Assembly (NCBI GenBank): GCA_973895155.1 | Contig: OZ316894.1 | Location: 13,821,580-13,885,579, forward strand | DNA from: Marsupella aquatica | Taxonomy: Eukaryota; Plantae; Marchantiophyta | Direction: 5' to 3' | Length of the DNA stretch: 64,000 bases | Shown here: piece by piece, positions 1 to 33,484 of the stretch | Numbering within the stretch: position 1 is the first letter of the stretch | Layout: the number at the start of each line of letters is the position of its first letter | Position numbers and translations under genes: made by a program | Notes under the pieces: generated by a model | Told to the model about the DNA's origin: nothing | Database searches by the model: none | What the model saw: the letters and a program-made list of their open reading frames with translations, nothing else

Positions 1-2944
1 CACACCAGTAATGCACAAGTTCCAACAGTTGTGCCTAGGCACAGTAAGTTGACTACAGCTACCAAACAAGGTAGTAGAAAGCGATCTCTTACTTTTTCAG
101 GCGATAATGAAGGTAAAATTCTCTATCATGTATACACTATCCATTCAATGTAATTATTGTGATGTGTCTATGTCATTGCATGTTTATAATGTTCTTGCAT
201 GTATTAAGTGTGATCATATGTTGCTAGTGTATACATGTTGCTAGTGTATACATGTTTGTATACACGTACTCTCCTAACGTGACAAGACTTCTTCTAGATC
301 ATTCTCTGTAACAAAATTTATTCGTTTGAAGTAAAAGACTGAAATCATTTGATGGCAAATTCTCCCCTTACTTAATCAAACCTCGCTTGGGGTGGACAGT
401 GGGGTATAATGAAGTAAGACATTCCCACTGTTGAGCAATCTCTTTGAGATAGTAAAATTTCTTAGGTCTTTCTGAACGAGGACTTTTCCAGCACACTAAA
501 AAAAGATTGGCAAAACATCAGGCTGACTTTCATGGTCAGACACTGCCAATAAAGTTTTGAACACAACAAACACAGCAAACATTTCCAATAGAATTTTTGG
601 GTAAAAGGGTGCAGCATCCTGATTTTCCTAAACTCCATGAATTTACTAGCAGATTCTTATGTTCAATTAGGCAGCATTAAACAGACCAGCCTTCCACTCA
701 GGCAGAAACAATCCTAGCCCACTCAAGCATTAAATAGGGTCGAGCCAAAAACTTTTGGCATCAATTTCTGAAACACCAAAAATGCCAATGCTAACACGAT
801 GAAATACTAGAAGAGATAGAAAAAGATACAGTAGCATTTGAGGCAATAATTGCCAGATGACAAAAAGAGAAGACAATAACTTATGAAAACTGAACACAGC
901 AGACACAAAAAATTGATGCTAAGGAGGAATTGAAAGAAAAGTGCCTTCAAACCTACTCTAGTGAGTTGCGATTCATGAATTGACAAATCAAAGGAGTGAG
1001 CACTCCAAAAGACTAATAGTTAGCATCGACAGCACCGATGCCACTACAGACATGCCCTGCCTGATACAAGGAGTAGAACCATATTGGGAGATACTACAGG
1101 GTATATATTGATCAGAACGATGATTGAGTTGCTAAGGAAGGGAGATCCTCAGACACAAAAGCAATCAGCAGACAAATTGTCGCTTGGCAATCATACATCA
1201 ATAGCAGTCAGAAAGGAACACTATCATTTGGAGCTTTATTTTCTTTTTGCAATTATAAGCTTGAGGTGTATGGTGTTCAATGATTCTGCAAGGCGGTCCT
1301 CGCTTGCCTCGAATAGTTTTTTGAAATGACAATCAAACAATTGATAGGACGAGGCTGCTCCTACCATCGCGGAGCAAGCACAGGCCACGAAGGAGAGCGC
1401 CAAGGGGCAGGCTGAGTCTACGAAGGTGACCGCAATGGACAAGGTTGCTCCCATGATCAAGGAAAAGATCAGGGCCGCGATGGAAGCAGGCAAGAAAGAG
1501 GCTGCATAGTTGGGGGAGACCGTCCAGTCATGGAGGGAATGGGCGATGAAGTATGTATTGATCTGAATCTGGCTTCCAAAGTGTATGCAAACATTGCTTA
1601 TGAGAGTTCCGGATACAAAGATATAGTAAGGATGGTAGTTCTTATCTAGATAAGAACATATGGTGATGTTGGTCGGGGTGATTTGGACTCATGATATATC
1701 TAGTGAGCTGGAGGTGTTTACAAAAGGCAGTAAATTAACAGCAAACAGAAAACTATAACAGGAACTGGAACTGGTAACAGCAAAATGTCCTGTTTTGGGA
1801 GCACATTTCTCCTGGTATTGTGGCAAAATTTAAAAAATCCGTTCCTAAAATACTGATAATTATGCGATGCCGAATACTAGCGCCGGGAGTCTACAGGCAA
1901 AACAATCACAAACGCATCATGCCGAATACTAGCGCCGGGCGTTCAAACCCAAAATAATGAAACATTAATCGCCCAAACGTGCCGAATACTAGAGCCGGCC
2001 GCTTCTAATGCTTTGTGGAGAAAATCACGAGAACGTAGGATTGATGTTCAGGCTGAGATCCAAGTAGAAACCAAACATTACTAATAGTCTAAGTTCAATA
2101 TCAAAGCACAAAAGTAGGACTTAACCAGGGTATCTGAGTCATAACTTCTAACGGGAAATTGAAAGAAAAGAAACCCAAGCTTTTTTATTTAAGTGAAACA
2201 TATTGTCCTCGATGTACAAATATTGCTACATAGGAACACTAAAGTTGCCAGTGCAATTGTAACTAGCGCCAGGCGCTAATACTCCCGGTGGGTGCTTCCT
2301 CGTACAATGTCCTAGCTCGAAGAGTGATAGTCATCATCAATCCCAACGTCCTGACGATCTGGATCTTGGCGGAAACCATCTAATCGGAAGTTGACATATG
2401 CTCTCGTGGGCTGTCGATACACTGGCCTTCCATGGAATCGAGAAGGAGAAGAACGAGAGCAATGGACTTTGAAAGAAACAATAGTATGTTTATAAGGGGC
2501 TTGGATTTCCCGTTATTGGTCCTCTTGACGGTACCAGTCGCCGACTGAAAGCCAAATGACACTATGGCGGAAACGATAAATATCAAACGGAAACTTCCAA
2601 CGTGTTTTTTGGGGAGCGTTGGGCGCTAGTTAAACAAGGAGAGGAACCCACGCAAAGGACGTTACTAAAGACCACATTAACCATTGAATGGAAGGGGCAA
2701 CCTCCATCAAACTCAATTCATATTTAATAAATTCAATAGCGCCCGGCGCTAACAAAAACCAAGGGCATACTCATACAGTTGGGAGGAAGTTTGACCTGAT
2801 AGAGGAGAAAATTGCTACCTTCAGTGTCATATTCTGAGCTCTCATTCTAGGAGCTATGAGATCTGTCGGTCGACTCTGCCTCATCATCAATATACTTGCT
2901 TCTAGAAACATCATCTACGTAGGGGTTCCTCATGAACTTCCTGT

Positions 2945-5900
2945 CTACTCCCCTAAGAAGCCTAAGTCCTTTGTTTCCCAGCAGAGCGTTCTAAATTTCT
3001 CTACCTTCCTCATGACGTTCTCAGCGTATGATGGCAACACAAACGGCTTCTCGGGAGTGATGATTACATTTCGAGCCACTTTCCTCCGGAGTTGAAACCG
3101 TTTTCTTTGGTTCCATTCTGACCTGCTCAAAAGAGAAGCGGAAAAGAAAGAGGAAGTAAGTACTTAACAGATAGAACCAGTGGAATTGATGGTTAGCCAA
3201 CAATTGAAAGGATAAAGGAGCTTACGAGAGACAAAAATTACTCGGAAGACTCTTCGCTGTCCTCCGTTGACCCATCATGTCGGGTTTCCTCTTTCCCGCC
3301 GTCATTGACATCCTCAGGAACATCATCTTCTGGCGTCCCATCATCTTTGTCCGAATCAAAGTTGAGGACAGATCTAAGTCTATCTTTCTTTTTTCGTCTG
3401 GTTATTTGAGGAGGGGGAGGTTGTGTCTCCAAAGGTTTGGGAGAAATGAGATCCAAAAAAATCCTCGAAGCGGTCTCAACAAACTCCTGACGATTTTCTA
3501 ACCCGATGACAAAACGGCCCGAGTAATCCCCAGCAATGAATGTACTACCTGAGCCGATGGTCCAATCAATTACAATATCCTTAGGTATCGTAAAGAGTTC
3601 AAGGACAGTTTGCATAAAACCAACCGGTAGTCGGGAATTCCCAGTAAAATGGAGTTCAGGACAATGATCTTCCTTCAAAGATTGTAGCCCAATAAGGTTT
3701 GAGATTGAAGGATCTTCACCGCTAGATAACGGCTTGAATCTTGGATCCTTTGGGACCTTTCTTTTAAAAGAAACTTGACAAAATATATCCAGTCTAAGAG
3801 TGAAGACCTGCAAAAGTTGACAAACCAACTGGATTCTAAAAATCTCTTATTCATGAGAGAAGACCTACTAAGAAAGAAAGAGTAGCGTCGGGCGCTAGTA
3901 TAGCTCTACTCAGAGAGAACATTTACCTGGACATCTGTCTTGGATCTGTACATTGGGACAGACATGAAAACATTATGTGTATTGATGCACATGAACTTCT
4001 TGGATTGCTGACATGCAGAAATGACCTGGGAAATCTGATCGTGGTCATCCGAGTATAAGATAGCGAGCATGCCGTCATCAGAAAGGAAAGGGTCCATCGC
4101 CCGAAAAAATGATTCGGCTGCTGTGTGATCTGTGACATTCCATTTTGGGACCCGACGATCAACAATTGTGGGTTTCAAACCAGTTGGGAGATAGATGAAA
4201 CCCGCATTCACCCCAAATGATTGTTCCTTCCCACCTCGAATGATTCCTTTATCTCTACACCCCGATTTGATCAAATCGTTACCCCACTTCTCAGCGTCTG
4301 AGACCCAATCTGGCTTCTCTTCCTTACTAAATGCACTATCAATGAATTCTGCCAAGCTTGATTCGACCATACAGTGTCTTTCGAGTTTAGTCTTGAAAGT
4401 CCCCACATCCTGTTGGATACCGGCCCCAGAAGCATTATCTCGCGACAATTCCCAGGCATCGATGGTCCTTTTCTTCTTCTTCTTCTTCTTTGTGCTTGTA
4501 GCATCCACAGGAACTATAACCTTTCCCTTCTCAACGGGGGTGATGGGGTCTGGATTGGCACCAATGTTGGCCTCAGAGACTTCTGGTGTTGCATCGACTT
4601 TTGTGTCATCCGTGGCGGCATCAGATTTTCGACCACCTACCAAAAAACGGTGTCAAGCACAGAAAGAGTGTTAGCGCCAGGCGCTGACCAAACACCCACA
4701 TTAATTTTGGGAAATAAGACACATTAAACTTACGACACATGATCGCGCCAGGCGCTAACAAAGAAGGAAGTCGGAAGAAGGAGGTGTAGCTTACATTTTT
4801 TCCCAGACTTGGCACTAGCACTTGCCATAGGGGCATCCGCCTTGGCTTTGGCTCTTGGTTTTTGGCTTCGATCAACATGAACCACTGTGGTTTCAAATTT
4901 TTTTTGCAACTTAGTTGTCGACGAGTTGACGTCCCCCTCAATTCCTTGCTTCATGTCGGAGACAAATTGTCTCGGAACTTGAGATTTAGACAGTTTATGG
5001 AAAGCATCCTTCTTAGTGTCGTCAAAAGGAGAATCCCATCTGTCGGTGTCAAGGTACCAAGGGCAGTGAATTCTCTCCCACTCGGACAATTTCCTCGGTG
5101 GAAGTATACCCTCAGCGGGATACATCGAATACAGTTCGGCCAAAATGTCTCCATCTGCGCAGATGACCCAATTCTAGAAAGCAGCTGGGTAAGCCCAAAA
5201 ATAGTTAGGCTTCACAATCTCCATGTGCATGAAGAAACAATAGACATATCGTTTCGCTCGCTTTTGATTCTTGAGTGTGTAGTCTTCCTTGTCCGGGTAC
5301 TTGGACATCCACATCGTATTGAAAAACTTACCTTTCACTGCATCCCCAAATTTTTTGAAATCATTGCACACTATTTCAACGAGTGAATCATAAGACTCAC
5401 ACTTCCATTCCTCCAATCGATTGGAAGGAATTATTTCACTGATTTGTTGGAGGGCAGTCTGCAGCATACCAATGGCAATTCCCTCCACGCTATTCCAAGT
5501 TTGCCAAGTGTGGCACCACTGCTTCACAGGGTCATCGCTAATGCTTTGTGGATGAAAGAACTGCTTCCTGAGCTCTGGCGTGCAATGCGCTACTTGCTCC
5601 TCAATTTGGGGTCGAGGGCGGAGACTGCTATAAATAACCTGGCACGATCCATGGTACAGACAACCACATCCGGTTTCTTCTCGCGTTTGTTCACCTCTGT
5701 CATCGGATACATCTTAGCACAGGTTGTCATGAAGTCTTCAAACTCAGGACTCAACAAGGGAGTGATCTTTGAGACCTTGATCGCCCAATCCTTTGTTGCT
5801 TCTTTCATCATGATCGCATGTTGTTTGGATGTCTCTTCCTGAGACCAAGGATTTCCCTGAGCGGTAGCCGACTCCATGTCCATCTTGAATTGTCGAGAAT

Positions 5901-6956
5901 AGGATTTAATCTTATTCTCGCATAAGATATACAGAAGTGCTTCTTGAGGCATTTTCTTGGAATACCACGATGCTTTTGAGTCTTCTACATCACCTGCCCA
6001 AACTTCTTGAAGTTTGCCCCATCGATGATTGATTTGTAGTATTCTAGATCGTTGGACAAAATCCTCTTAATTCGGTCTGCATCAAGTATCCAGGAAGGTT
6101 CCACCACGGCCTGTCCAAGTCTACAGAAGAATTTGTCAGTCAATAGCGCTAGTAAAAACTACACTATAAAAGATAAGGATAGGTGAAATTCAAAGAGAGA
6201 CTTACTGGTTCACAGTATGCATAGCCGCCTCAATTTCAATCAAAGATCCCTTTTCACCCTTGAAGATAGTACATTGCACACGCGGGTGATACTTGCTATC
6301 TTCCGGATTTTCTTTCGTAATGATCGACCATGCGTAAAGTCGACGGTTACCGTCAAAAATGTAAAACATCTTATCTTGTAACACCATGAAGTCTGGATCG
6401 GCCGCACATTCAGCTTCAAACTTCTCATTCTCGGCCACCCACACCGGGTCCCAGGTCACTCAAATTTTTGGAGTACACGTCTGGACATTCCCATTCGAAT
6501 CTGTCGGCTGGACATAGAACAACATTCCGATTTTTGAGTTGTATCCTGTGCTACGAAAAGAGTCCTTCAACTTTTCAATTGAAGGACTTCCCTTCTGTAA
6601 GGTGCGGACAACTTCCATGTGAACCAAGCGGCACATTGGAATCCTTGGGGGGTCTTTGTCGTGTCCTTGCCAAACACCATAACGTGCTTGGAGATAACGT
6701 CGGACATCGTCAGTGATAGTTCTCCTCGATCTTCCACAGCGTATGTGTCAAGATTGTCCATCTTTGCTCTCCTGCTCTTCGGAAATGTGACTACCGCGAT
6801 TGTTTCAGGATCTTGGGATGTTGTAGACCGTGTCACACGACGACTGTAAACAGATCCAGAAAACAAGCACTCAGATGTCTGGGAATGGATCTGCTCTCTC
6901 TGCCTGTTAGCACTATACCCATGCGAGGTGGTGGGGAGAGGGTCCATGTTTCGCAT
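2945..6956 (-). pseudogene. Spliced ParB/Srx-like + beta-class DNA (N4C/N6A) methyltransferase-like gene (disrupted)
   Basis: ParB-like segment VRTLQKGSPSIEKLKDSFRSTGY...FYIFDGNRRLYAW (~6620-6205). MTase-like segments FLSDDGMLAILY and PVGFMQTVLELFTIPKDIVIDWTIGSGSTFIAGDYSGRFVIGLE (3238-3828 ORF). GT-AG introns at ~6205-6121, 4794-4637 and 3926-3808; the last two join the flanking ORFs in frame. In-frame stops at ~6460 and 5174 plus frameshifts. The 3' end is uncertain. Confidence 0.7.
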
Positions 6957-7928
6957 ACACGAAGTGCTTCACGATCACGATGAGTACCTCATTCATACCG
7001 TACTTCTTCTAGAGAATTCTTGCACGAAGAACCTCCAAAACGGAACCTAAATACAGCGGACAAGGGAGGTGGGGAGAGTATCATCTCTAAACTATCCCCT
7101 CGCTACATTGATATCTATTTACAACATTCTCTTGAGCGCCACTTGTCAATTTTGGATTAGTTGTTAGAATACCGTTGGCATATCTTCAACGTTACGTGAC
7201 CTAACGTTACCATTGAATATGACCGTTAACGAAGAGTTCGGTGATTTTAATCTATATTCCTAGGTCAAATCTGATATTGGTCAATGGTAGCGCCTGACGC
7301 TACCCAAAACGATCAATATTTAAACCCTAAATTTTCCCTAAGTTAGGCCAACATTGACCCTGAAGTATAAAATAAAAAACAAAATGAATACAATTTTTGA
7401 ATATTTTTCCTTAAATGAATGTCATGATTACCTTTTCAGATTAGCGCCCGGCGCTAATATTAAATGGGCACATTTTGGTAAAATTTTAGATAATATTTGG
7501 ATAATAGCTACATACATTAGGATTTATTCTGAAACCCCGGATAAAATATTCCAGTTTTCTACCACAATTTAGGGTGTGGGTTTGAGTAGCGCATGGCGCT
7601 AAACATATATTGCACCATTTTGGGTCCATGTTGGAGTGAGGATGTTTGAGTAGCGCCCGACGCTACTCAATTAAGATGATTTAATAAACATGATTATGCT
7701 CTTCAGAAACGAACATCTTAGGCTCATTAGTGTAAATGTTGTTGACATAACGACAAAAAACATTTATTGTGTCAGATGTGCTTTCGACCGGTAGTGATTC
7801 TATCGTATTCTAACGGCTTTGACAAACGGATTATTGACTATGAATACCATTGTGTGCATTCGAAGAGTGCATTCGAAGACTTCATTCATTATTGTGAACT
7901 GAGTGTTTTTGGGTTGGATGATCTTACA
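6957..7928. promoter_or_regulatory. Putative bidirectional promoter between the ParB-MTase-like gene and the transposase
   Basis: AT-rich ~1-kb gap between head-to-head genes. Holds four palindrome copies (7288, 7442, 7587, 7651). Confidence 0.5.
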
Positions 7929-10900
7929 ATGTCGAGGTCAATTGTTCTGACGCGTCCGTCTACCAGTGACCTTGTATCCATTCCATTGTCGGCCAATGAC
8001 GTATACAAGCAAGTTAGTGAGAATTATCTCTTTGGGCGCTTTGGTTTGGATTTGAATGACATTGAGGACATTTTGGAGGAGGGAAACGGAGACGAAGCCT
8101 CTAATTTCACTACTTCTTTTGATGTTGATGACGGGATTCGTTTTTGGCACCTGAATGCAGGAATTCGGTATTCCATTGTCATTCAAAAACCAGTCGCATC
8201 CGATCTCCCATCTTCATCCAAACCCTTTGTTGATGTTGTCTTGCTTTCAGATAGCGACGATGGTGGACCTTCTGGTTTGCCTGAGTCTAGTGCTAAACCC
8301 CCTCACACAGTTGTTAAACAGGAGGTTACCCCTGTTAAACAGGAGGTTACAGCAGTTTTTACCAAAAATTCCATTGTGTATCGGAGAAGTGCAACGGATA
8401 CCATTCTCAAGTCAACTGGTTCCAGTGAAATCTCGAGGTTCATCACGGCTGGGGACTTCTGCCATGAACAAGTCGGCTGTTTGCCAAAGAAATACAATGG
8501 AAATATTGTATTCGAGTTGCCTCCTGCGGGAGCTCTTTCAAAGGGGTCACGTCTACGCTACATCTGGACCAGAATATTTCCTACATTAGCTAATGTTCAT
8601 CCCAAGAAATATTGGGAATTTGGTAAAGTAACGTGCACTGGTTCCATTGAGTGTAGGAATAATACTTGCGACTATTTTTGACGGAAGAAAAAGAGGAACC
8701 AGAAGGCCTGGGGTAGAACCCCCAAACTTGGCGGGCAACATTGTGTTGCCTCCTTCATTGATGAAGGTGGAGTTGTTTGCCAATTTTGTGATCAAGTTCC
8801 GTTTTGTGTCCAATCCTGTCCAGCAAGGTTATTTTACATGTACCCCCAGGTTCTAGTTGACTCAGAAACCTGTACTCACATGTCCCGCTTGGCAATTCAT
8901 ATGGGGATGCACAACCATCCTTCAAGAAAGGTGTTTTCTCGGAGCGCAGAGAAGATTGTTGAGGAGGTTATCAAAAAGAAATTGGAAGGAAATCCAATTT
9001 TCACCCCTGCTGGTGTAAAAAATGTGGTGACAGGGTCCTTTGTAAAGTCCTTGTGTGAAAGTGTGGAAGATATTCAAGATATTGAAGAAACCGAGATATT
9101 TGAGTCTCTCATGGTAGTTTCCACACCCCAGAAGTTTGCGTCCCTCTTTCGTAGTGTTAGACAGGACCAGAAAGGTCGAGGTGAACTTGATTTTCTTGTT
9201 CGCTATCAAAGAAATATCAACATGCCATTCCTCCAAAGGTACCTCCTACCAGGTCAAGGGTCTGAAGAAGACCGTCCTCACATATTCAAGATGACTTCGA
9301 TCGGCCATGGATCAGGCGTCAATCTTTTGAGACAAATGCAACCTGGTGGAAGTCTAGAAGGTTCTTGGGTAAGTTTTGATGTGATGAAACGACTCACAAA
9401 AGACTGGGTTACTTTTAGTGCGCATATTTACGATCACAACTATTGCGCTCTGTGTACCTTATTTACCTGCAAACTAAAAGCAGAGGATACAGAGTCGTTC
9501 GAGAAGGCTTGGAGACTAATGATTGAGGTGTCCAAGGAGAATGGATTAGAAAATCCGATTATTCATGGATTCATGGTGGGCAATGCTCAAGCTGGTTGAA
9601 TTGGCTGGCAGTCCGAAATGTCTTTTTTGGAGGGCATCCAAACCCTGAGTGTGAGCGAACTGACGCATTCCATTTCTACCAAGCCTTCCATCGCCATTCA
9701 GTTGAAGGAGTGATTGAAGAGAGTCAAGGAGAGCATCGGAGGCTTTGGGATAAGATGCAAAATGCCCCCACGTTTGTAGAGGCTTACAGAATTTCAAGGG
9801 AGATTGATTTGTGGTGGCAGTCGGGTAACTGTGTCCCGGGGAAGCTTCGGATGCTCCAGAGTTGGATTTCATGGTGGGTCGTTAGGTGGAGGCAATGGGG
9901 AAATTTTATTCGTTTGGTAAGTTAGTTTACTTTGCTTTCCGCTCTTTAGGTATTACTGTGCTATATTCTCATTACAAAATGTTTGTATCCATATTCAAAT
10001 ATTACAATACCATAGCATCCTTTAATACTAGCGCCTGGCGCTATCATTTATTCAAACTGTCATATGACACAATACGACGCAATAAGTTGTCCCTTAATGG
10101 ACAGTGCCAGTTTTTACTTCTAGGTACAGACTCCACTTCACTAGTGCCCGATGCTAGTGTTTTCTTGTTGCGTAACAGACAATTTATTCTATGTAATTGC
10201 AGAACAAGAGTGTCAAAGAAGGGGCTAAGATTCCTAATTGTACAAGATCAGAGTCCGTGCACGCAGGTATGAAAGCATGGGTAATGAAGAAAAAGGTTGG
10301 CCTCTTTGAGGCATGTGAAATGGACCAAAATCAAGCTATTTCTCAGGTTGCTGCTTACACTGCGTATCGGAAAGGGTTGCATAGAGGAAAAGGTCCCACA
10401 ATTTGGGAACTCGCTTTCCAATCAGCGGACCAGGCAGGCTCCCCCAAGTTGTATGAAGATGCAATGAATATGCTACTGTCCAACGCTGCCGAGTTTGACT
10501 TGGAGAGACGTGCACCTCTCAATGGAGACGTTGTCACCAAATCTTTGAAGAGGAAAGGACATGCATCTGGGAATATCTCGCCACAAGACTCCCATAGGCA
10601 TGATAAAATCCTTGTCACCTTGCCCAATACTAGATCGATGAAAAGGAAGAATCTTAATCGCACGACGTTTGATGCTATCCCTGGCCCCACGCCTCAAGTT
10701 AATCCTGTTGTTAATCTGTCTGGAAGTGACATTTTGGGCGGTGGAGAAGATGTCGATTTCAATACCCCTCCTGCTCAAGACCAAACGCGTTCAACGAGGC
10801 TTCCCCAGACTGCTCCCTCCGTGCTTCAGCAACTGTTACAAGAGTGTCCTATCCGTGAGACCGAGGTTGCTCCAGCTGCATGGCAATTACGTCGAACTTC

Positions 10901-11717
10901 AAAATTTGGCGCTGGTCCTCAAGTGCAACGGATCATTTTCCCGTAATTCTGAAAGAGACGAGTGTCGCAATCGCATGAAAAAAGTTGGATTTCCCTCACC
11001 ACATGGTGTTATCAGCGTTGTTGTCAAAGGACAACGCATTTTCAGGGGGGAACCCATAACCGAAATGATTTGGTTTTGCCCACACAATACATGTTATAGA
11101 AGCCGCCCGCGTCGAGGTGTATTGAACCTGCCCCCTTTCCCTGATGTTCTTCCCGTTTTGTTTCGGAAGACGAGCTGCAATATCTTCTTGACAACGGAAT
11201 CTCCCTAGTGCGCGGAAATGAACGTACAACTACACCCCCGTCAGATTTTGATCTTCGAATCAATGTCAATATCTTTCTAGAACATGTGAATCTTCTCGAA
11301 CCCAATGTTCGTCTCCAAAGCCGGAATGGGAGGAATACGGTTCCTCGGTCAAATCTTACCCAGGGTCACATGAACAAAATTGCGTCTGCAAAAAAAGAGA
11401 CGATGTCCATTCAGGGAGAGTGGGATGTTGCGATTGGGAATGCATGGGGAAAGCAGTTTAAGGTGCAAACACACAAAAATATGCGGACGCCAAATTGTTA
11501 CTTTGTTCAAATTTGCATTTTCCCCACTTGCTCGTGTGAGGATTTCTACCGGCGACATTCTCGGAAACATCCATATATGCCTTGCAAACGTTTGTATTGG
11601 ATTTTCCTTACCGTTTTCAAACTAGATGTTGAGGAATCTACATTGACCAGCCAACCAATTCTCACTGTTGGAGAGGTCCGGCTCATATTAGAGAGGCAAA
11701 ATGCTCATGGTTTATAG
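7929..11717 (+). pseudogene. MULE-type DDE transposase with N-terminal GCM-like Zn domain and C-terminal SWIM finger (disrupted)
   Basis: Joined from ORFs 7767-8681, 8838-9599, 9596-9925, 10197-10946, 10669-11208 and 11208-11717. Motifs: CTGSIECRNNTC...CQFC...CPAR...HMGMHNHP; VSFD...GFMVGNAQA...AFHFYQA...ESVHA; SWIM-like PTCSCEDF...PCKRLYW. In-frame TGA at 8679, frameshifts near 9597, 10920 and 11208, and a GT-AG intron at ~9917-10202. Confidence 0.8.
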
Positions 11718-13731
11718 CATGAATCATGATGATGTAGGTTGTATTATCGGTCCAAACGGTTATATTGATTTTGTCGTATGTCAACGAAATAGTGTTATTT
11801 ATGTCACGTCATGTTTTGTTAGCGCCAGGCGCTGATAATTTTGTCGTTTAGGCTACACCGTTAAATATCATCGTGTTGTGCTTGATGTTCTCCACGCCAA
11901 CTATTTGTTTCCTTAAATACCGATAAGATAGCGCCAGGCGCTAGTCAAGACGTTGTTCGCTTTTATTTTGGACCATATAATACCATAAAGTTTTGGGCTG
12001 CATTCATTTTGTATTATTTTCATATATTTTGTTGCCGATTGTGGTGGGACCTACCATTTTTGTGCGCATTCCTTGACATTTTTATGTATGCTCCCCCTTG
12101 TTTGTGTTGGGATGTGAGGTTCAATTATTATGTGGTTCAGCGATTCATGACAAGGTCTCCTCCCTCACCGCAATGGACTAACTCCAACTTAAACAATTCT
12201 AAACTCCTGATTGTGTGTTCTTTCCCCTAGTACAAGATGTTTTTTCTTGGTAACAGCATAAGGCAAACAGGAAAAGTATTTGCTGTTTGCCTGTTTGCTA
12301 TCTCGGTCGCTATACCCGTGAGCTGTAAGAAGTACCTGGATTTTTGGACCCAGTTTTAGGAACAATTAATCATCTAGTTCGAAATGACAATCGAACAATT
12401 GATAGGGACTGTTGGAAATCAATAGCAGACAGACAGGAAAACATGTATGCTAAGCAGGAGGAGAAACAGAGCAATAGAGCAACATAGCAAGAAGGCAGGG
12501 GTAGCATGGCAAAAGGAAAGAGTAAATTGAAACTCTAAAACATAGCCAGATTGAAGGTGAAGAAGCGCTCAAACCTAACTCCGGCTCCGACCGTTGCTTG
12601 ATCCCGCAGCTCTTGACCGACCAACAGCTCCTCACCGACCAGCGCTCCTGCAACTCCTCCCTGATGTAACCGCTTGCAGCTCCCGTAGCTCCTCCCGCAG
12701 CTCCGCAGCTCCCAATGTAACACCTCCCGCAGCTCTTTGACAAACATTCTAAACTAGTTGCTTTCACTGCCTTCGATCCATGAGCTTCCACCGTTTTTGC
12801 CTTCCACAATGATTTGGGTCCCCAACACGCAAATGCCTTCCCTTCCCTCCTGCAACTCAAACATGTGCTCGGAAGAGTGTCAAAACTCCTCCCCTCCCGC
12901 AACTCCAACCTGTGCTCCTGTAGGTCTAAACGGTGAGACCAACGTGCGAATGCCTTCCCTTCCCTCCCACAACTCCAGTCTGTGCTCCCAGGGCAAATGT
13001 GCTTGGAAGAGCGTCGCAGCTCCTCCCCTCCCGCAACTCCCACCTATGCTCCCGGGGAAAATGTGCTCGAAACAGTGTCAAAGCTTGGTGGAATGGAGCA
13101 CAAAGCTGCGCAACCCTAAGCCCTTGCAATGTGCACACAAAGGCATGCCAAGAAATAAGCACATATTGCGTTGCCCTCTTGATGTTTGTTCAGGAAAAAG
13201 GGCTCCTGTTGGTACACGAGAAAACTTGAGCGGGATAAACCTAATTGCTGGACCCCTAAACCCCGTAAAGGTAAGGTATTTCGTTGGATGGGGATGGTGG
13301 ATATTGTGGGTCATTAATTAGGGTTATTTTTTGAGACTAGTTAATAGCAATGTAACAAAACCCCCCATAAGGCCCTAGGGAATTACCAACTAAATAGGTT
13401 AATAACAAGGTCCGGATGCCCCAATAAGGCCCTAGGGAAGGCACTGAAGGTTAATAGCTCATAATGTCGCGACACCCCCATAAGGTCATGGCTGTTTGTG
13501 TAGGTGCCAACAAGACATTGACCCTAAACCCATAACCCGCCCCTCATTTAAACCTCCTTAATGGGAGGTGAGGGTGTTGTGGATTACATTAGTGTAATTA
13601 ACTATGTACCGGCCATGTTTTTTGGGTGATAGGTTATGTCTGCAAAAAGGACCATATGCATGAACACAATTTTGGACTACCTTATTAGTCTCACCATATG
13701 ATAGTTATTAGTTTCATAGACATACGTATAG

Positions 13732-14062
13732 GAGGGTTTTCACCGTGACAGCAAATAGCAAACAAATTTACTGTTACGAGCAAACTAGACAATCTAAAAA
13801 TGTGTCATTAAAAGTCACAATTTTCAAAATAATTTAAAACATGACAATTTTTTGCTAGGGTAAGGCGATACTATTACTAGCTCCGGGCGCTAGCCAAAAA
13901 ATATCGACTCACAAACAAAATTTAATATTTTTTCCCCAAAAAAATTCCCCAAAAAAAAATTCCCCAAAAAATTCCCCAAAAAATTCCAAAAGTTTTACCA
14001 CCCGTTTGTTGTTACGAGTAACTATTTGCTGTTTGCTGTTTGCTGTCACGGTGGTTATACCC
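13732..14062 (+). mobile_element. MULE-derived MITE (331 bp)
   Basis: 9-bp TSD TACGTATAG (13723-13731 and 14063-14071). Ends GAGGGTTTTCACCGTGACAGCAAA ... TTTGCTGTCACGGTGGTTATACCC. Internal palindrome variant TAGCTCCGGGCGCTA at 13878. Confidence 0.9.
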
Positions 14063-14071
14063 TACGTATAG

Positions 14072-16720
14072 TATGTGTACTTGCCAGCATCCTCGTCTAG
14101 GGCCCACATCCCGGGCCCCTTACATGCTACATGAGCACTACATATGAGGCTATGTTGTCTAAGAGTTTTTGAGAGCATTACACCAAAGCATTAATAAGTG
14201 AGCCTTCCCATGACTATATGACCTCCAATATGCCAACATTAATGGCTTCCAAGATGACAGCGTGAGTGACCCCACTTTTAGTCGTTCAGATTGAAGCACT
14301 ATTTAATTCACAAATGACCCAATGAACTCCCTTGTACCTCCAAAGAGAACCCCCCAATAGCCTTTGTAAGGACCACATTTCCAATCATTTGGAACTTCTT
14401 ACCTGTAGTATGATAACCAAGATGACCCTAATTTGAGGTGTTTTCATTAATGACACACCATGAGGGACCTCTCTAATGACCACAACTTTGGCATTGCTCC
14501 AAATGACCTCCAATATGATGATAAAAATGACCCTATATGTAGTCATTGGCATTAATGACACACCATTATGTGAAAATGACCCAATGAAGAGTACATTACC
14601 TCTCGGAGTGCCCCCTTACAATTCATTTGGAATTTAATAGAATATATCCAAATCCAAATATCGGCACAAACATGACAAAGATATATAGAAGGACATAGTC
14701 TTCCACTAGTATTACATTATATATCTCTTGGAGAGACAAAAACAATTTTTGTTTGCCGTTTGGATGGGATGGTATGCATGCATGGTGACACTTTTGGCAA
14801 ATCACTCCAAAGTTATATGACTTGGGAGTGATTTCCCCAAAGTTCCATCGTGCCTAAAGTAAACGCAAAAACACGGCTCCAAAGTGCTAATGGTGCAACT
14901 AGGGGTTGGAGAATGGTAAATATAGTATTTTGCACCTAGTGGAGGGGTTGCGAGCTCTATGTGGGGCCACATGGCACTCTAGGGCCCGCCTCCAACCCTT
15001 AGCCCCAAATTGGTCATTCATGCTTGTCTTCAATGACTGCACTAGGGACATCTCAAATGACTCAAAGTCCAGTCATTTGCCTTTTATGACATCCCATATG
15101 ACCAATTCAATGACCCTGCTTGTAGTCATTGGCAATTATGACACGACTTTGTTAAAAAATGACCCAATGAAGGTCCTAGTACGTCAAGAAAGAGGCCGCT
15201 TTAGATTTCTTGTAAAATAGGAATATTTCTAAGTATACCTTTAACCAACACACATGTCCACCGTAGAGGGAAGCACCTTTACCACGCCCATTCCATTGGT
15301 GTTGCACTACCTCATTGAGGAACAAAACAAATGGCTCCATTTGCCTTTGGAACATAAGATATTCATGATCCATGATGGTGCTTTTGGCAAATCACTCCAA
15401 AGTTGTATGACTTGGGAGTGATTTCCCTAATGTTGCATCATCCCTTAAATAAACGCAAAAACTCACATATGAGGTACGGTGCTAATGGTGCAACCAGTGG
15501 TTGGAGAATAGTAAATATAGTATTTTGCACCTAGTGGAGGGGCTGCGAGCTCTATGTGGGGCCACATGGCACTCTAGAGCCCACCTTCAGCCCCTAGCCC
15601 CAAACTGGTCATTTGTGCTTCTGTTTAATGACTGCATGAAGGGCCACACAAATGACCACAAGTCCAGTCACTTGACTTATATGACTTCCCATATGACAGT
15701 TTTAATGACTTGAATTTTGGTCATTGGCATTTATGACAAGTCATTGGTCATATATGACCCAATAAAGGCCCTAGTACCTCCAAAGAGAGCCCGCAATAGA
15801 TTCCTTGCAAGGTTGGAATATTCCTCTTCCCTAAACTCGCACCCACACCATACAGAGAAGCACGATTCCCCTGCCCATTCCATTGGTGCAGCACCACCTC
15901 TTGGAGAACCAAAAAATAACTTTTATTTGCCTTTGGATGTGATGGTATGCATGCATGGTAACACTTTTGGCAAATCACTCCAAAGTCGTACAACTTGGGA
16001 GTGATTTCCCCAAAGGTGCATCATGCCTTAAGTAAACGCAAAAACATGTGTCCAAAGTGCTTATGTCACAACTAGTGGTTGGACAATGATGAGTATAGTG
16101 TCCCGCACCCAATGGAGGGGTTCTCACCTCTATGTGGGGCCCCATGGCATTCTAGGGCCCACCTCCAGCCCCTAGCCCCAAACTGGTCATTAGTGCTTGT
16201 GTTTAATGACTGCATGAGGGACCACACAAATGACCACAAGTCCAGTCACTTGACTTATATGACAGTCCATATGACAAATTTAATGACCCTACTTTTAGTC
16301 ATTGGTATTTGTGATGAAAATGTTTTTAGAAATGACCCAATAAAGATTACACTAGCTCCTTGAATGCCCCATCACTATTCATTTGCAAATTAAAATATTC
16401 CCCATCCAAACACCGGCACAAACATGACACGATTACAACAAAGGATGACAACCTTCCATTGGTATTGCCCTACTTCTTGGAGAGACAAAAAGGCTTCATT
16501 TGCCTTTGGATACGATAGTATGCATCTATATATGGTAACACTTCTGGAAAATCACTCCAAAGGTGTATGACTTGGGAGTGATTTTCCCTAAGCTAGGTGC
16601 ATCACGCCTTAAGTAAATGCAAGACATGTGTTCAAATTGCTAATGCCGCAACCAGTGGGAGGAGAATGATGAGTATTGTGTCCCGCATTTAGTGGAAGGG
16701 TTATCAACTATATCAATGAC
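14072..16720. repeat. Tandem array, ~580-590-bp unit, ~4.5 copies (CACTA subterminal)
   Basis: Anchor G(C/A)AAATCACTCCAAAG recurs at ~14796, 15386, 15969 and 16546. The same spurious ORF repeats at 14906, 15501 and 16079. Confidence 0.85.
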
Positions 16721-16759
16721 TCTACAATTATGACCGGTGTCTGGAATGACTATTGAAGT

Positions 16760-17262
16760 AGTCATTTATGCAATAAGTCCATAATGACTGTATGTTATTG
16801 TAAACATTGATATATCATGATTTTTGGATTGACCCTATATTTAGTCATTTATGCGACAAGTCCATAATGATAGTATGTTGTTGTAAACACTGATATATGT
16901 TAATTTCAAGATTGACTCTGGAGTTAGTCATTTATGAGAGAAGTCCATAATGACGGTATGTTCTTGTAAATACTGATATGTCCTAATTTCAAGATTGACC
17001 CTAGAGTTAGTCATTTATGAGAGAAATCCATAATGACGGTATGTTCTTGTAAACATTGATATGTCCTAATTTCAAGATTGACCCTAGAGTTAGTCATTTA
17101 TGAAAGAAGTCCATAATGACGGTATATTGTTGTAAACACTGATATGTTCTAATTTCAAGATTTACCCTAGAGTTAGTCATTTATGAAAGAAGTCCATAAT
17201 GACGGTATGTTGTTGTAAACACTGATATATTCTTATTTTCAGATTGACCCTATATTTTGTCA
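16760..17262. repeat. Tandem repeat, 83-bp unit x6
   Basis: TCCATAATGA recurs at 16778, 16861, 16944, 17027, 17110 and 17193. Confidence 0.9.
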
Positions 17263-18431
17263 TTTAACACCGTTGGTTAAAATGACGGAAATACATTTTT
17301 TGTCATTTATCATAGTTGACCAAAATGACCCAAATAAATTTTTGGTCATTTCAATCATTGTCCAGAGTGACTATAATGGTGCTAAACACTGATTTATCAT
17401 TGTTGTTATTAATTGCGTCATTTAAGACATGTGTCTAAATTGACCATTTTGGGAAATTGGGTCATTTTGGTCGCATCAGTCATTACAAACATTATACAAA
17501 ATGACGCAAAAGTTAACATTTTGTCATTTCAGTCTATTGGTCATTGTGGACAGTCATTCTCCTGTCATTCTTTTTGTGTCATTAGAAATTTGGTCATTTA
17601 TTCATCTTCGTCATTGGGTGATTGGTCATAAAGGGCCCTGTTTTCTTCTAGTGCGGCCTATTCAATCTAGCTCTTTGAGCACTTGGCCCTAAAGCACACA
17701 ACTTCCCATCATCTAACAGGATATCACATCCTTCATAGACCAAATTGTTGCCATGCATGCCCCAAATTGCTGTAATAGTAACTCCTAACAAGTTTCCTTA
17801 CTGATCCATTGCTACAGACCTTTCTCCTATTCTTGCTGATCAAAACTTAGCCACTGCTACACAAAATGAGGCTTCCTTCTATTTCACAGAGTTTAAATAC
17901 TAGTTGCCCTAACAACTTAATCCTTACTTTACTCTAACTTTGTAATTACCTTAAAGATTTTGCTAATCTAAGACTTGGTAATTTCTTGCCACTTCACCTG
18001 CCCATATTTAGTCCCCACTGGATGGTCATTCCAGAGGCCTAGACCATAGAGGAGCTCGGCATTGAAGTCAACGACCCCGGAGCTAAGTGGTAGGGTAGTC
18101 AAATTTTGCAACTCTGTCAAAGTTTAGGAGAAATCATTACCAAGCAACATCTAGTGGTGTGGATGAGAAGTAGAAACAAGGATATGGGGTTTCATAGATT
18201 TCCGTTTAAAAAATTAAAATTAAAAATTTATTAAAAAAAGTGAGGATATGGTTGAGAGAACAAACTCTTTTGTTGCAAAAACAGAATCATCGAATTGATA
18301 GATCTCAACAGTTTGTGGAACTTGGGTGAATGCCAATTTGGTGCCAATCAGGGAAAATTCTATGAAGCAACTTGATCAGGATTGGCTGCACATGCAAGGA
18401 TTGTTGGCTACACTTGCAAGAAGTGATTTGT

Positions 18432-19567
18432 GAAGATGTTGTGAGATGCCTGGATGGTTTCTAGCACCTACAGGATGACATGATTTGTTCCATTATCAAG
18501 ATGTGCGGGAGGTTTGGAGTAAGGACGATGTCGGATTTTAATGGTTCTCATGACTCAGTTGTTCGAACCATTTCTACTAAAATCACAAGAATACGTGGTG
18601 CTGACGCTGCAATGAAAGAGCTTTGTTTAGCATTCGTGGACAAAATCAAAGATACTATGGATTGCTTTGGAGATCTCCAAGCTCGTGCCGCCCAATGGTT
18701 CTGGTCTGACAAACGTGAACGGCTGAAGAGTTTCACTCTGCCCAATGCACGTACGTATCAGCTTATTCGACCGAAAGGCTCGGATTCTCTCAGGCTCAAC
18801 GGGATTTGGAACATCTCTTTTTCTGACCTCGAATGGAACAAATTCTGGAATGCTCTATGGTCATCTGATTTACCGTTAAAAGGCCGCTTATTCCTCTGGA
18901 GATTAGCTGCTCAAGGGTTATTCACTGGAACACGAGCTAGAAAGATTGGTAAAGGAGATGGAAACTGCCTACTGTGCACCAATGTTCTTGAAACAATTCC
19001 TCATCTTTTCTTCACATGTCCCTTCGCTAAGAGGTGCTGGCAGCTGGCTGGGAGGACTTTTCCGGGTGCCACTTCTTGGAGATATTTGAATTTATTCTCT
19101 GTCTTGGGAGACATTGGATGCACCAAAATTGAGAGAACCATTCGGGTCTTTGTGGTTTACCATGTGTCGTGGACTCTTTGGCTGGCACGGAATGAGCAGC
19201 TCTTTAATCGTGTCAACAGTAGAAGGTTTAACCTGAATCTACTCCTTTCAGATTTGTTAGACTCCTTGCATGGCCTATGTGAAGCCTCGGGGCCCAGTAG
19301 AAAACATACTAGATTACTGCGAGTCAAAGAATTAGCTGTCAGGAACGTCTTAGGTGGGTTACTCGTCCGGATGCATGGCTTTTTAGTTGAAGCTATACTT
19401 GTTTCTGCATTCTACTTTAGTTGGCTAGGAACACTTCTTTGTGCCTTTGCACTTGTGTGCTCATTTTGGTCTCACCTGGGTTACACTCTGCTGCCCATGT
19501 TTATGTTGCCCTGTTGGGCCCCCTTTCCCGTGGGTTTTCGCGGGTTTCATTTAAAAATTAAAAAAAA
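18432..19567 (+). mobile_element. 5'-truncated LINE (L1-type) with zf-RVT domain and A-rich tail
   Basis: ORF 18480-19610 contains FWNALW...KGRLFLWRL...CLLC...ETIPHLFFTCPFA...W...WTLWLARN (zf-RVT). A-rich tail at ~19553-19569. 11-bp TSD AAGTGATTTGT (18421-18431 and 19568-19578). Confidence 0.9.
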
Positions 19568-20740
19568 AAGTGATTTGTTGTACAATTGTTGGACTCAAGA
19601 GAATCATTAGGAGTGTATATCAAGCGTGAGCCGTCCATCCTCAATACCCAATTTAATGATAAGAGCAATAACATGTAGAGAATGCCGAATGTGCCTTATT
19701 TGATCTGTTTAATTTTGAATGGAGTGTATTCAATTCTCTAAAGTCTTTGGAGCCAAAACAGAAAAGTCTATGAATGATTGATGGAATGAATGAACAAAGG
19801 ATCGAATGAGCCTAGCAAAGAGAAGACATACAAAACATCTAGGTTGAGAAAAGAAGAGCAAACTTGGAAAATATGTAGAGTGTTGCAAACATGCACTTCA
19901 ATTTTATGTTTGATTCATGGAATCTAATTGGCTCTATGAAATCTTTTGGCCAAAATAGTACATAGACGACCGATCAAATGAATGAATGAAGGAATGAATA
20001 AGAGAAAAAAAATTAGAACCAAAATCAGTTGAGACGTCACACGCATTACCCCTAGTAGCATCTCACATATTTTGTAATGATTGGTTAAGCCAGTCTCTCG
20101 AGTGACTCATATCACCGAGCATATCACCATGATATGCATCATCGCAGGTTAGTTGTTGGATCAAACTTAGCTTAGCTCACCATGAGTAAATAGGATGGGT
20201 ATAAACAAAAACCGCCTTAGACTCATGAAGGGAATAAATGACCATCCTAGGAGCCTCCAACGTTGTTACTCCCACAATTGACCTGAGAATCAAAGAAGTT
20301 GGTCAGTTTGTCAAGATTCTCGTGAGGAATGTGAAATAATGATGAAAACCCAGTTGCCACTATACTGCTCAATTCAGCCAAACAGTTGACTACCTGACAA
20401 GGGAGACATTTCGCCTTGCATGGCCATTTAAGTGCCTTTGTGTGTGGTGGATGATGAAAGATGAAGACCTTGCCTTGTCAACTTCCTTGCCACGAAAGTT
20501 GTTTTGAATAGTTCAGCCAAGCATCCACCTAAACGGTAGAATGGGAGAATTGACATTGATCAGTCAAACAATGGTAGGTTACGAGAGAATAATTGGAATC
20601 ATGATTACTTAAATTATTTTGGGATTTGTGCATGTAGTCAAGAAACTTGCATCCACCTGAAACCATTCACGCATCTAGTCGTGAACATTGCATTCACGGG
20701 CTTGGAACTTGATTTGCATGGACCCAGATTCAAAAGGAGT

Positions 20741-23016: not shown

Positions 23017-25449
23017 TGTGACACGGGTAACGTGTCACTTGACCGAACCCAGGTCGTAGATTAGGACTTATACGGTCATTAGGACCGTAGCCATAGTGTA
23101 GAATAGCACGTATAGCCGTCTGTTGCCATTATGATTAGATTAGGAGTAGGTTAAGATGATCGAATCATTAAAAGTTAAGGAAGGGGATTATTACGCGCGA
23201 CCGAGGTACAGTGGCGGCAGCGGAGTAAAAATCAGTTAGAAGAATCACGCTTGGACTGAGGCGCCGACTTCAGCTCGCTATCAATGCCCAAAACAGCCTG
23301 GCCTTCTCACGCTCGGGCTCATCCTGGCACCTCCATAAGAGAGGAGCCGATGGCGTTGCGGGCCATTTGCTCATGTCTACCTTTCTTTGAATTCGCGGAC
23401 GTTGCCACCCACTCGCCCTGCTGATCGAATCGAGTCGACCTTTACAAGGAGATTATCGAGGGAGAAGAGCGGAATGTGGCGAGATTTAGTCAGGACGAGC
23501 GAGGCCTCCACGAGACAGAGGACCAGCCGGGTGGGAACGCGGACTCAACGAACCGGACTACGAGGTTAGTATGACCCTCACAGCCTTGGGATTTTGGACC
23601 TTGTTTGGCGAGGTAGGTGCTAAGTTCTCCCAGACTTACTGGTACTCTTGCCCCGAGAAAGCCGCTTACGAACGAAGATACGCGAGGCTGGTGACCAAGG
23701 TAGCACTGGTTAATTGCGAAAGGACAGCCATCACCAGGGATTCCAGCTACAACGAGCTGCGAGACTACATCACCGAACTATATCTCAGCAAGGAAGGGCT
23801 TAGATCGGTAGCTGAGGCGATTCTTGAGGTTCCAGCGAAGTTCTTTAAGCTGAAGGGCAACCAACGGCTTACTCAAGCGGAGTTCGACAAGATTCCGGGG
23901 TACCTAGACCAGCAGATCACAGCCGAAAAGTGCCAGGAAGACATCAGCAGACAACGGGAAGCGGCGCGTAATCTTACGTTCCTCGGGGAAAGCTCCAACG
24001 CCTTCAACTGGGATATGGCTACCCCGATACCACCAGCGCCTCAACCGATGACCACCGAAGTACCGCCGAACCAGTCCCAAGTCCGTCCAGTAATCAACAC
24101 GGAGTGTTCTTCGGGTTCCGAGCGAGCTAGTCCGCAACTCAAACAGTGTCCTTGTAAGCGGCCAAGGACTACGATGGCCCCCGAATCAACACGGACCGAC
24201 GCCGCGCCTGCACCTGCCCCGGCAAACCTCCCCGACCAACCAGACCCGACGGCCCCCGGATAACCCAAAGTCCAACTTATTACAGGTAATCCGCATCCCC
24301 GAAGTAGTCTGGATCGCGATCAAGAAACTCAAACATGCGGACTATCTCAAGGAGCATCAATTGAAGCGGTTCGCCCACTTGCTATGGAGGCCGTGCGCCG
24401 CCGGGCCGAAGGAGATTTGTGAGTTCATCTCCAATTTCGACACTAACGCGTCGACCACCAAGGTTTCGGGGCAGGCCTTATCACTCATGGAGCATCGGTT
24501 AACGCAAATCTTCTGCCTACCAATCGGGCCCGTGCCGGTGGAAATCCAAATTTGGGATAAGGAGTATACGCCGCGGCACTTCAAACCCGAGGGTAAGACG
24601 GACAACGGATACAAGCAGGGGGCGTGCACCAACTTAACCTGTATGGAGCGGCTTAACTTCATACGGACTACCCTACACATGATTGAGCCACGATCCGAGA
24701 TTTCCCTCTGCACGATCGTGCAGGTGGAACAGTACAAACGACGAAACTGGGCCCAATTCTTCTACCGAAGATTCTCGGGGCAGCTGAAGCGGGCTCAGGG
24801 TGGTATGGCTATTGGGGGGAAGACTTACTTGGGAAGTCATATCGCCATTATCCTTCTCCTGGTACAAGGCACGGCGGGAGGCCAGAGGAAAGAATATGGC
24901 CACCTCAGCCCCGGGTAATGTCACCCCCGCCCTAGAGGAGGCAACCCCGACTACGCGGACTACCGTCCCTCGGGCAAACCCCGAGCCGGAAGCCCCGACT
25001 AATACTCCGCCACCGCCCCCTATGGAAATTCTGCCGCCCCCTTCCGTCGAGCCTCCGCTGCCCGCAGTACAACCACCCCCAATCCCTCCACCACCTGAAG
25101 AGACCTCACTAGTAGAAACCGGGGCAATTTAGACCAAACCTTATAGGACTAAGGCCACTAAGTCCTTTTTGGCAACCTTAAATGACTCGAAACCATTGCC
25201 ACGGTTCACATGAACACTACAAAAGACTGTGAGTGCTTTTTGGTTTTGGATAAGACTATGAAAAGTACCCTTCTTTGTGAATGTATGAACACTCTAGCAC
25301 ATGATGGGTTGTAGGGTTTAGTTGTGGGCTTTAATTTGATAATGGGCATATGGGGGGGGGGGCACAATTCATTTGACGACCTCTTTACCAACATCCCGCT
25401 AACTTGAACACGGACAAACGGCGTAAATGTTGAAATTCCCTAATTTTGA

Positions 25450-30511: not shown

Positions 30512-31180
30512 AAGACCACTTGTCACACCGCATGCACAGACCAGAGACCATTGACCTATAACTTAACACTTTGACTTGAACAGAGAGGATATTTACTTAA
30601 GATTTTGAATTATGAGCAATTTTGGGTCCAGGGTTTACGGTCAACAGTACATAACTTATCCTATTATGGCTGCACTAAGTACAATATCCTAATTTAAGAG
30701 GCTAGCAAGCTCACTTAAAAGTCTCCTTTCAAAGACTGGAATTAATGGGCCATGTGATAACCTGGAAAAAGTGATTTATGCCTAACTTATTTGTCTCATT
30801 CACTATCATAGCCTATTTAGGATGTATAAATTACAACCCTGATCACACTGCTTGATACCAATCCTGTTCAAAAAATGCCTGTTTTACATGTCACGACTGT
30901 TATATGTGATTCAAATGCATTAAATCTTGTTGCAGATCTCCTTTGGTGAATCATAGCCACAAAATTGAGGTGTAGGTGGAGCTATTGTACGAGGGGATCA
31001 GTTTTTAGTGTGGGCTCAACAAACCAAAAAGTATGTCTACTCTGCACATGTGTGTGAACATTTCATTGCAGTAGCAATTGCCACTCTAGTCTATATGCTA
31101 CACTGTACTTTTTGTACACTGCACTAAATTGTATTGTCTGTGCACTCTACTAAATTATACTATTTGTCTCAGGCGTAGGC

Positions 31181-31861
31181 ATGGCACGCCCTAAAATCCG
31201 AGCCAAGAAGCGGGGGACAGAGGTGAGCAACACAGGTGTAGTTGGGCCAGATGGTAGTAACTTCTCCGCAAGTCAGATTTTCCAGAAGGCAGCTCATTGT
31301 TGTGCCATTTGTGACGATGGTGGTGGCTTAGCCATATGTGAGGGCCCTTGCATGAGGCATTTCCACCTCAACCCGGAGTCTGACCTTGCTGCAGAAAACA
31401 ACTGTCCAGGGGTGGGCCTCCCGTCAGCACACCAGGGAGGCTGGATGTGCACTGATTGTTTGGAGAAGCAGGCTAAGTGTGCACAGTGTGGGAAGTTGGG
31501 GTCTTATGAGGGCTCTGTTGATGCTCCACCACTTGTTAGGAAATGCCCTGACAGATATTGTGTGAGGTTCTTTTGTTTTTCATGTTTGCCCGATCTTGCC
31601 ACAGCTTGCCCACTTCATAAGTGCAAGGCATGTGGTCAGCACGATGAAGATTTTTGGGTGGACATAGTCCACTGTGTTAGGTGTCCCACCATGTGGCACT
31701 TTCATTGTTTGAAGGAGCGTCAAGCAGAAGGCTATGCTTGTGACAGACACATCTATGATCACTCTGCACATGGTGTTGATCGATGGATCTTCTATTGTCA
31801 TCGCCATGCCATAGATCCTACTTTGCACACTCCCATGAGAGATCACATTTCTTGGCTTTGA
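31181..31861 (+). CDS. EDM2-like composite PHD-finger protein (CACTA cargo), 226 aa
   Basis: CAICDDGG..CEGPCMRHFH..WMCTDC..KCAQCGKLGS..CPLHKCKAC..CVRCPTMWHFHCL..YCHRHAIDPTLHTPMRDHISW parallels the PHD region of Arabidopsis EDM2 as I recall it (CAICDNGG..CEGSCLRSFH..CPLHKCSVC..CRRCPKSYHRKCL..YCQEHEIDEELLTPVRDHV). Basic N-terminal NLS. Intact and intronless. Confidence 0.85.
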   Translation: MARPKIRAKKRGTEVSNTGVVGPDGSNFSASQIFQKAAHCCAICDDGGGLAICEGPCMRHFHLNPESDLAAENNCPGVGLPSAHQGGWMCTDCLEKQAKCAQCGKLGSYEGSVDAPPLVRKCPDRYCVRFFCFSCLPDLATACPLHKCKACGQHDEDFWVDIVHCVRCPTMWHFHCLKERQAEGYACDRHIYDHSAHGVDRWIFYCHRHAIDPTLHTPMRDHISWL

Positions 31862-33308: not shown

Positions 33309-33484
33309 GGAGTAGGAGTCCCTCATATTTTTGTATAAATCACAATTTTGTAATAAATGTGATCCTTGAACTAACTCATCTTGTCATGGTTGGTCGCAGT
33401 TGAAGTGATTGTTGTTTCCTGCTGCGTGGGGTGTGACTGTGAATCTACTTGCTGGGCTCTGTTTGGCTAAAGACTTTGGTGGGT

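Follow-up and report, generated by a model that had tools for sequence, protein, structure and literature searches.

In the liverwort Marsupella aquatica, a dead member of a multi-copy family of MULE-like transposons carries, head-to-head with its transposase gene, an accessory gene confirmed at the level of gene models to be a spliced fusion of a ParB/Srx-fold domain and a beta-class amino-methyltransferase (MTase)-like domain. The non-coding DNA of the element holds many matches to one 15-bp palindrome, TAGCGCCNGGCGCTA. We tentatively propose, with slightly less than even confidence, that the accessory protein likely binds the element's own palindromes and likely blocks silencing of the family without adding methyl groups.

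Results

Architecture and copy number of the element

The window, which is the whole stretch of 64,000 nucleotides analyzed, contains the element at positions 1711–12317 (10,607 bp). Its ends, GAGG.. and ..TATACCC, are shared with two MITEs in the window, and it is flanked by 8-bp target-site duplications, GTGAGCTG on both sides (1703–1710 and 12318–12325, plus strand). The putative terminal inverted repeats, common to the element and the MITEs, are short (only ~35–40 bp) and imperfect in the element and clearer in the MITE. One MITE (13732–14062) has a 9-bp duplication, TACGTATAG, and a palindrome at 13878; the second (55356–55694) has an 8- or 9-bp duplication and palindromes at 55500 and 55522. 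These duplication lengths are within the MULE range, which is given as 8–10 bp in the available text of PMC5225508. A 29-bp direct repeat (93%) at 1320–1348 and 12378–12406 falls beyond the shared ends and was therefore not accepted as the target duplication.

Both genes lie within one target duplication, and the accessory gene has five exons and ~1,208 codons. The original prediction of an intron-bearing gene of more than 1000 codons facing the transposase was borne out. Four sequencing runs, drawn from two studies, yielded 1,727 to 4,403 matching contigs whose identity varied and which covered all 30 bins of the element. This indicates that the family is multi-copy and contains both genes; no single contig from the four runs covers both the accessory gene and the transposase. 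Contigs in two runs join position 2759 to 10022 with 33 other letters between them and support from only 22 letters. Two palindromes adjoin this joint, which is possibly an internal-deletion derivative. The CpG observed/expected ratio is 0.70–0.73 in the genes, compared with 0.54 elsewhere in the window, and youth accounts for the raised value as well as protection does.

The transposase gene (7929–11717, plus strand; intron 9917–10202) encodes, by eye, a Zn-rich N-terminal part, a D..D..DxxH..E layout, and a SWIM-like C-terminus. The motifs seen are FD, ADN (VGN in the present copy), DAFH, SES, and CxC..CKR, which we take to be a DDE core with C/DxxH and a SWIM finger. The label "MULE-like" is used because the DDE layout was recognized by eye, but neither Pfam nor PDB gave a match for the transposase. 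In the present copy, the reading frame is interrupted by a stop (8679) and a frameshift (9596), the second Asp is changed from D to G, and more breaks follow. A search with the transposase returned nine matches, none of them from Riccia; the sole species-named match was from Calypogeia fissa (59%, spanning one third of the query). The present species is the one in which the accessory gene was seen linked to this transposase, which counts against our preferred reading.

Several other features were recorded in the window. The stretch 31154–38045 on the plus strand contains a CACTA/EnSpm transposase (Transposase_21, E 3e-59; DUF4218) and, upstream of it on the same strand, a twin-BRCT ORF along with PHD fingers that are NSD-like but weak, possibly a chromatin-reader cargo. 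Tandem arrays at 14250–17450 have units of ~585 bp and ~83 bp, and remnants of a LINE zf-RVT (18465–19610) and an LTR integrase (56135–56827) were found. A repeated unannotated ORF family has at least three related copies (23490–24918, 45611–46066, and 48609–50659), and the one that was scanned gave no Pfam match.

Gene model of the accessory protein

By six-frame reading, the accessory gene runs on the minus strand from the ATG at 6956 to ~2850 and is interrupted by four GT–AG introns (6205–6121, 4794–4637, 3926–3808, and 3241–3123). Exon 1 (6206–6956) encodes a low-complexity N-terminus and the ParB/Srx-fold domain (~6665–6206), and exon 2 (4795–6120) encodes a conserved middle region, as judged from tblastn colinearity with Riccia models. 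Exon 3 (3927–4636) contains a linker and the first half of the MTase-like domain, including the motif IV position; exon 4 (3242–3807) contains the second half with the SAM-binding motif I; and exon 5 (2850–3122) encodes a conserved C-terminal tail (LPSYA..YIDDEA). All five exons lie on the minus strand.

Riccia gene models are colinear over all five exons in tblastn: P0153 through its residues 169–540, 461–747, and 1054–1191, with further placements of P0020 (residues 925–1038) and P0169 (320–359). P0153 (1207 aa) and P0020 are single gene models, although they are predictions and not transcripts, and the colinearity agrees with the earlier claim that the two domains belong to one gene. The intron after the ParB exon occupies an identical position (the same codon) in four of four metagenome loci, each shorter than 2 kb, and 61 of the 150 listed matches terminate in Asn-x, as expected of a gene caller that halts at the first intron.

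The present copy was correctly described as disabled, with four frameshifts and two stops in the accessory gene. Exon 1 has a frameshift near 6665 and a stop at 6460–6462, exon 2 has frameshifts near 5990 and 5594 and a stop at 5174–5176, and exon 5 has a 1-nt frameshift at 2969 that leads to an early stop at 2945. Among the sequencing-run contigs, other copies have the letters that the present one lacks at 5594 and 2969, and at least two of the frameshifts are absent from them.

ParB/Srx-fold domain

The predicted model of the ParB part has a pLDDT of 89; in the query, the first ~26 residues precede the frameshift near 6665 and were translated in the wrong frame. In the Foldseek search with this model, the 25 best listed rows all belong to the ParB/Srx superfamily at E values of 0.04 or worse, with sulfiredoxin, KorB, Noc, and ParB coming first at weak E values. 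The VIA structure search gave KorB (Z 8.0, rmsd 2.6, 92 aligned). Of the 14 rows with Z ≥ 2, the best 13 are proteins that we take to be members of the same superfamily. The viral structure library returned phage ParB proteins for the N-terminal domain. The ParB/Srx assignment is made because three structure libraries agree, and no single score carries it. Pfam, PDB sequence, and PHROG searches missed the domain, the best match being a weak one to a PHROG ParB-like entry at E 0.056 (1 of 47 rows).

The G-x-x-R box of the family is DGNHR, and [DE]GNHR is the first regex match in 89 of the 150 listed matches. Because a His codon is found at 6344 in 96–100% of the depth in the four runs, the DGNRR of exon 1 is private to the present copy. 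The ParB/Srx N-terminus that had been proposed stands as a fold, with no sequence-profile match, whereas the DGNRR cited for it is private damage of DGNHR. The middle region gave no significant match, and neither a helix-turn-helix nor another recognition domain was found in its low-confidence fold, which counts against binding of the palindrome by this protein. Atlas leads were all below 0.9; they included N6_N4_Mtase for exon 3 and nothing useful for the middle region.

MTase-like domain and motif IV

Exon 4 matches Pfam N6_N4_Mtase (E 1.2e-8; 35.6 bits, above the cutoff of 26.7) and, by sequence, M1.HpyAVI (E 9e-5); a word-based search of longer proteins with this exon as the query gave no match. 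The unsplit MTase-like domain of Riccia P0154 (predicted model, pLDDT 56) gave CcrM at E 4.6e-7. Beta-class enzymes were ranked top for this model, including MboIIA (Z 11.3, rmsd 4.9, 165 aligned); the structure matches with Z 9.5–11.3 cover 6mA and 4mC writers alike, and the fold does not tell them apart. The beta-class motif order, IV before I, is kept, and motif I reads DWTIGSG..GLE in the present copy and DFAGGWG..E in relatives. The beta-class MTase assignment of the C-terminus was confirmed by the Pfam match, the motif order, and motif I. UniRef names several of the MTase-like Riccia proteins (P0151–P0179) "Trimethylguanosine synthase," apparently a misannotation.

The motif IV position reads YLPT (IYLPTG) in the present copy and D[LM][PS][TS] in 15 of the 15 covering Riccia rows, which are paralogues of one species; row P0179 does not extend over this position. 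Two fern proteins have DVPF and DFPI. The canonical motif, defined as (D/N)PP(Y/F/W) in the available part of PMC6787082, occurs in none of the 15 Riccia rows and neither of the two fern proteins. The alignment was used in preference to a regex census whose pattern already demanded D and P/S and which had two spurious rows out of 25. The Tyr codon of IYLPTG is one base away from Asp, and this Tyr is probably private to the present copy, replacing the Asp kept by relatives. The catalytically altered motif IV of the original prediction holds in so far as the family is devoid of PP[YFW], but the Tyr on which it was based is probably private and the relatives keep Asp.

These features bear on the possibility, which we judge unlikely, that the accessory protein is an active self-marking writer that would bind the palindrome and deposit 6mA or 4mC via an atypical D-x-P-[TS], thereby blocking host 5mC. 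The whole beta-class fold is kept, as the CcrM and MboIIA matches illustrate, and so are the Asp and motif I. True catalysis would be compatible with the conserved Asp, Pro, and SAM motif and with the DVPF of one fern protein. However, the canonical motif IV is absent from every relative examined, and loss of the aromatic residue usually cripples amino-MTases. The MTase model is also that of a Riccia relative at pLDDT 56, with a fold that fits 6mA and 4mC writers equally. Self-modification has been proposed for the algal counterpart, in the portion of PMC12477816 at hand, which speaks for an active writer.

Palindromes in non-coding DNA

The palindrome TAGCGCCNGGCGCTA has 15 matches at ≤2 mismatches versus 0.06 expected, and none of 100 shuffles equaled that number. 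At ≤3 mismatches, 19 palindromes occur in the window, 16 in the element and three in the MITEs. All 16 in the element are non-coding, where non-coding DNA makes up 33% of the element (P ~2e-8). Five are 3' of the accessory gene in the region 1930–2751 (at 1930, 1990, 2264, 2614, and 2737), three are in its introns 3 and 2 in the region 3883–4757 (3883, 4672, and 4743), and four are in the shared divergent promoter region (7288–7665). The others, in the region 10029–11943, are in the transposase intron (10029 and 10142) and downstream of the gene (11820 and 11929). In intron 1, a palindrome at 6144–6151 has its center deleted in the present copy, and the seven missing letters are present in other copies. 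The outermost palindromes are ~220 and ~375 bp from the ends of the element. The palindrome is likely the accessory protein's candidate binding site, and the self-targeting role envisaged before the palindrome had been noticed gains support from it. Its center, CCNGG, presumably resembles bacterial N4C methylase sites, a point for the active writer.

In the intron after the ParB exon of one relative, L002 (884–990), a different inverted repeat, CTCGGC-N7-GCCGAG, was observed with a second imperfect copy, and it may be the binding site of that relative's own family. The short intron stretches of three of the four metagenome loci showed no inverted repeat.

Retention of the palindrome in both MITEs suits binding by the transposase equally well and counts against our preferred reading. 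The palindromes would then be transposase sites, and the accessory protein would aid the transpososome or act on chromatin without a sequence target of its own; we regard this as somewhat improbable. The searches detected no domain for DNA recognition in the accessory protein, as this explanation would have it, and the sites are nevertheless dispersed over the promoter and both genes' introns, with no clustering at the ends. Subterminal repeats are described as frequent in MULEs (in the available text of PMC5225508), and the Mutator transposase AtMu1 can activate cognate copies sequence-specifically, according to the accessible part of a preprint (bioRxiv 10.64898/2026.08.24.746577). On the other hand, an unrelated superfamily also combines ParB accessory genes with inverted repeats, as far as the text at hand of another preprint goes (bioRxiv 10.1101/2025.02.11.637652).

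Relatives, constraint, and origin

Relatives of the accessory protein are full-length in the liverwort Riccia and partial in Adiantum ferns. The representative search yielded 215 matches at E ≤ 0.001; among 30 examined relatives, picked mostly by length, 20 have a species name (14 Riccia sorocarpa and six Adiantum). The MTase search returned 26 matches, all from Riccia, where the gene is multi-copy and many of the models are fragmentary. In the ParB exon, synonymous sites are saturated in 10 of 10 pairs with dN of 0.35–0.83, and this dN despite saturation indicates that the exon is constrained between lineages. The ParB tree contains many deep lineages; it was built without bacterial rows and with one mis-cut row (P0049), and is uninformative on origin. 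A phage tblastn search gave three weak 46-residue matches. A horizontal origin of the accessory gene fits the bacterial matches of the predicted folds, and any transfer would be old, because all 20 species-named relatives are from liverworts or ferns.

It is highly improbable that the accessory gene is a passively captured host gene, in the style of Pack-MULEs, with no role for the element. The present copy and many relatives are broken, and many Riccia models are fragments, as such a gene would allow. At least two of the frameshifts, however, are missing from other copies, the family has deep lineages under constraint and is multi-copy in Riccia, and its palindrome is located inside the introns of the accessory gene itself.

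Discussion

Here, we propose a mechanism in which the accessory protein shields its own family from silencing. The protein would be made from the divergent promoter and would recognize TAGCGCCNGGCGCTA in the way that ParB recognizes parS, probably in dimeric form. The DGNHR site would bind a nucleotide and may allow loading at the palindromes and spreading. The MTase fold, with SAM binding and the Asp presumably retained and the stacking aromatic residue lost, might grip or flip bases; it would protect cytosines in CG and CHG contexts against methylation by the host or recruit erasers in a VANC-like manner. We count for this non-methylating reading the single target duplication around both genes and the excess, non-coding placement, and MITE retention of the palindrome. 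The intron 1 site that is complete elsewhere, the constraint on the ParB exon, and the non-canonical motif IV are also counted for it, as is the different inverted repeat in the same intron of L002 (one case). The matching placement of VANC21 target motifs and the inverted repeats adjoining Bostrychia ParB accessory genes speak for it too. A bolder version, which we find distinctly doubtful, is a parS/ParB-like self-system in which a nucleotide-gated clamp would load at the palindromes, spread, and write 6mA or 4mC through a non-canonical active site, providing a family-specific anti-silencing address.

The novelty implied by the original prediction was not upheld at the level of the gene class, since such accessory genes have already been described in brown, red, and green algae, as seen in the available portions of PMC12477816 and bioRxiv 10.1101/2025.02.11.637652. 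No paper on a land-plant version of a ParB–MTase transposon gene was found in a search with subscription journals and Repbase outside its coverage. What is new is a land-plant, MULE-like form of the design described from algae, with a clear candidate target site. VANDALs are presented as the sole known transposons that bind and modify themselves (bioRxiv 10.1101/2025.02.11.637652, in the part available), and two 2025 algal papers propose, in their accessible text, that ParB-containing proteins bind and modify their own transposon (PMC12477816; bioRxiv 10.1101/2025.02.11.637652). The element gives material for testing: exact ends, a candidate 15-bp site that is statistically strong, short derivatives keeping the site, and full-length relatives from a liverwort that has been sequenced. 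If the proposal is true, it would represent a second anti-silencing system, in seed-free plants and from bacterial parts, and possibly a sequence-specific tool for epigenome work.

Comparison with known systems

At the domain level, the N-terminal domain has the core fold, the conserved Arg, and the G-x-x-R box in common with the ParB/Srx superfamily (KorB, ParB, Noc, PadC, sulfiredoxin, and SerK), and differs from these proteins in an ~30-residue helical insertion that contains an invariant Trp. Unlike ParB, the accessory protein has no detected ParB-type helix-turn-helix. The MTase-like domain shares its fold and the IV-before-I order with CcrM, M1.HpyAVI, M.MboIIA, M.PvuII, Marchantia DN4MT1, and rotifer N4CMT. 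Beta-class amino-MTases have (D/N/S)PP(Y/F/W), whereas the accessory protein and its examined relatives do not. DN4MT1 has TSPPY in the available text of the Marchantia preprint and is described as having no added N- or C-terminal domains in the consulted part of PMC8885841. Eukaryotic N6A-MTase clades include chlorophyte ParB–HTH fusions and are few in land plants, as far as the text at hand of PMC4738411 goes.

A close counterpart in domain layout is the accessory protein of Ectocarpus Sola1-1_Ec32, a ParB-like and N4C/N6A MTase fusion of 1104 aa for which binding and modification of its own element have been proposed, with green and red algal cases cited alongside (available text of PMC12477816). 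Both have ParB and MTase in one protein of similar length on the strand opposite to the transposase. The Ectocarpus system is that of a brown alga, a Sola1 element with a 4-bp duplication and a 282-bp TIR (PMC12477816, same portion), whereas ours is in a land plant and MULE-like, with an 8–9-bp duplication, a dispersed palindrome, and a non-canonical motif IV. In the Bostrychia Plavaka elements, PAG2/PAG3 comprise a ParB-domain accessory gene beside inverted repeats and a PF01555 methylase as cargo, and homologues sit on Chondrus Mutator elements (bioRxiv 10.1101/2025.02.11.637652, available part). The ParB accessory gene with inverted repeats and the methylase are thus common to both systems, but the Bostrychia elements have ParB–2OG oxygenase and methylase–SET fusions as separate genes and repeats in tandem arrays (same preprint text). 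By motif placement, the element resembles the VANDAL MULEs of Arabidopsis, in which VANC is also a MULE accessory gene with a short family motif in non-coding DNA; VANC21 targets introns and intergenic and terminal non-coding regions (accessible text of PMC5735166). VANC motifs, however, are non-palindromic and often tandem, and the function of VANC has been shown (PMC5735166, in the same text), whereas we infer that of the present protein.
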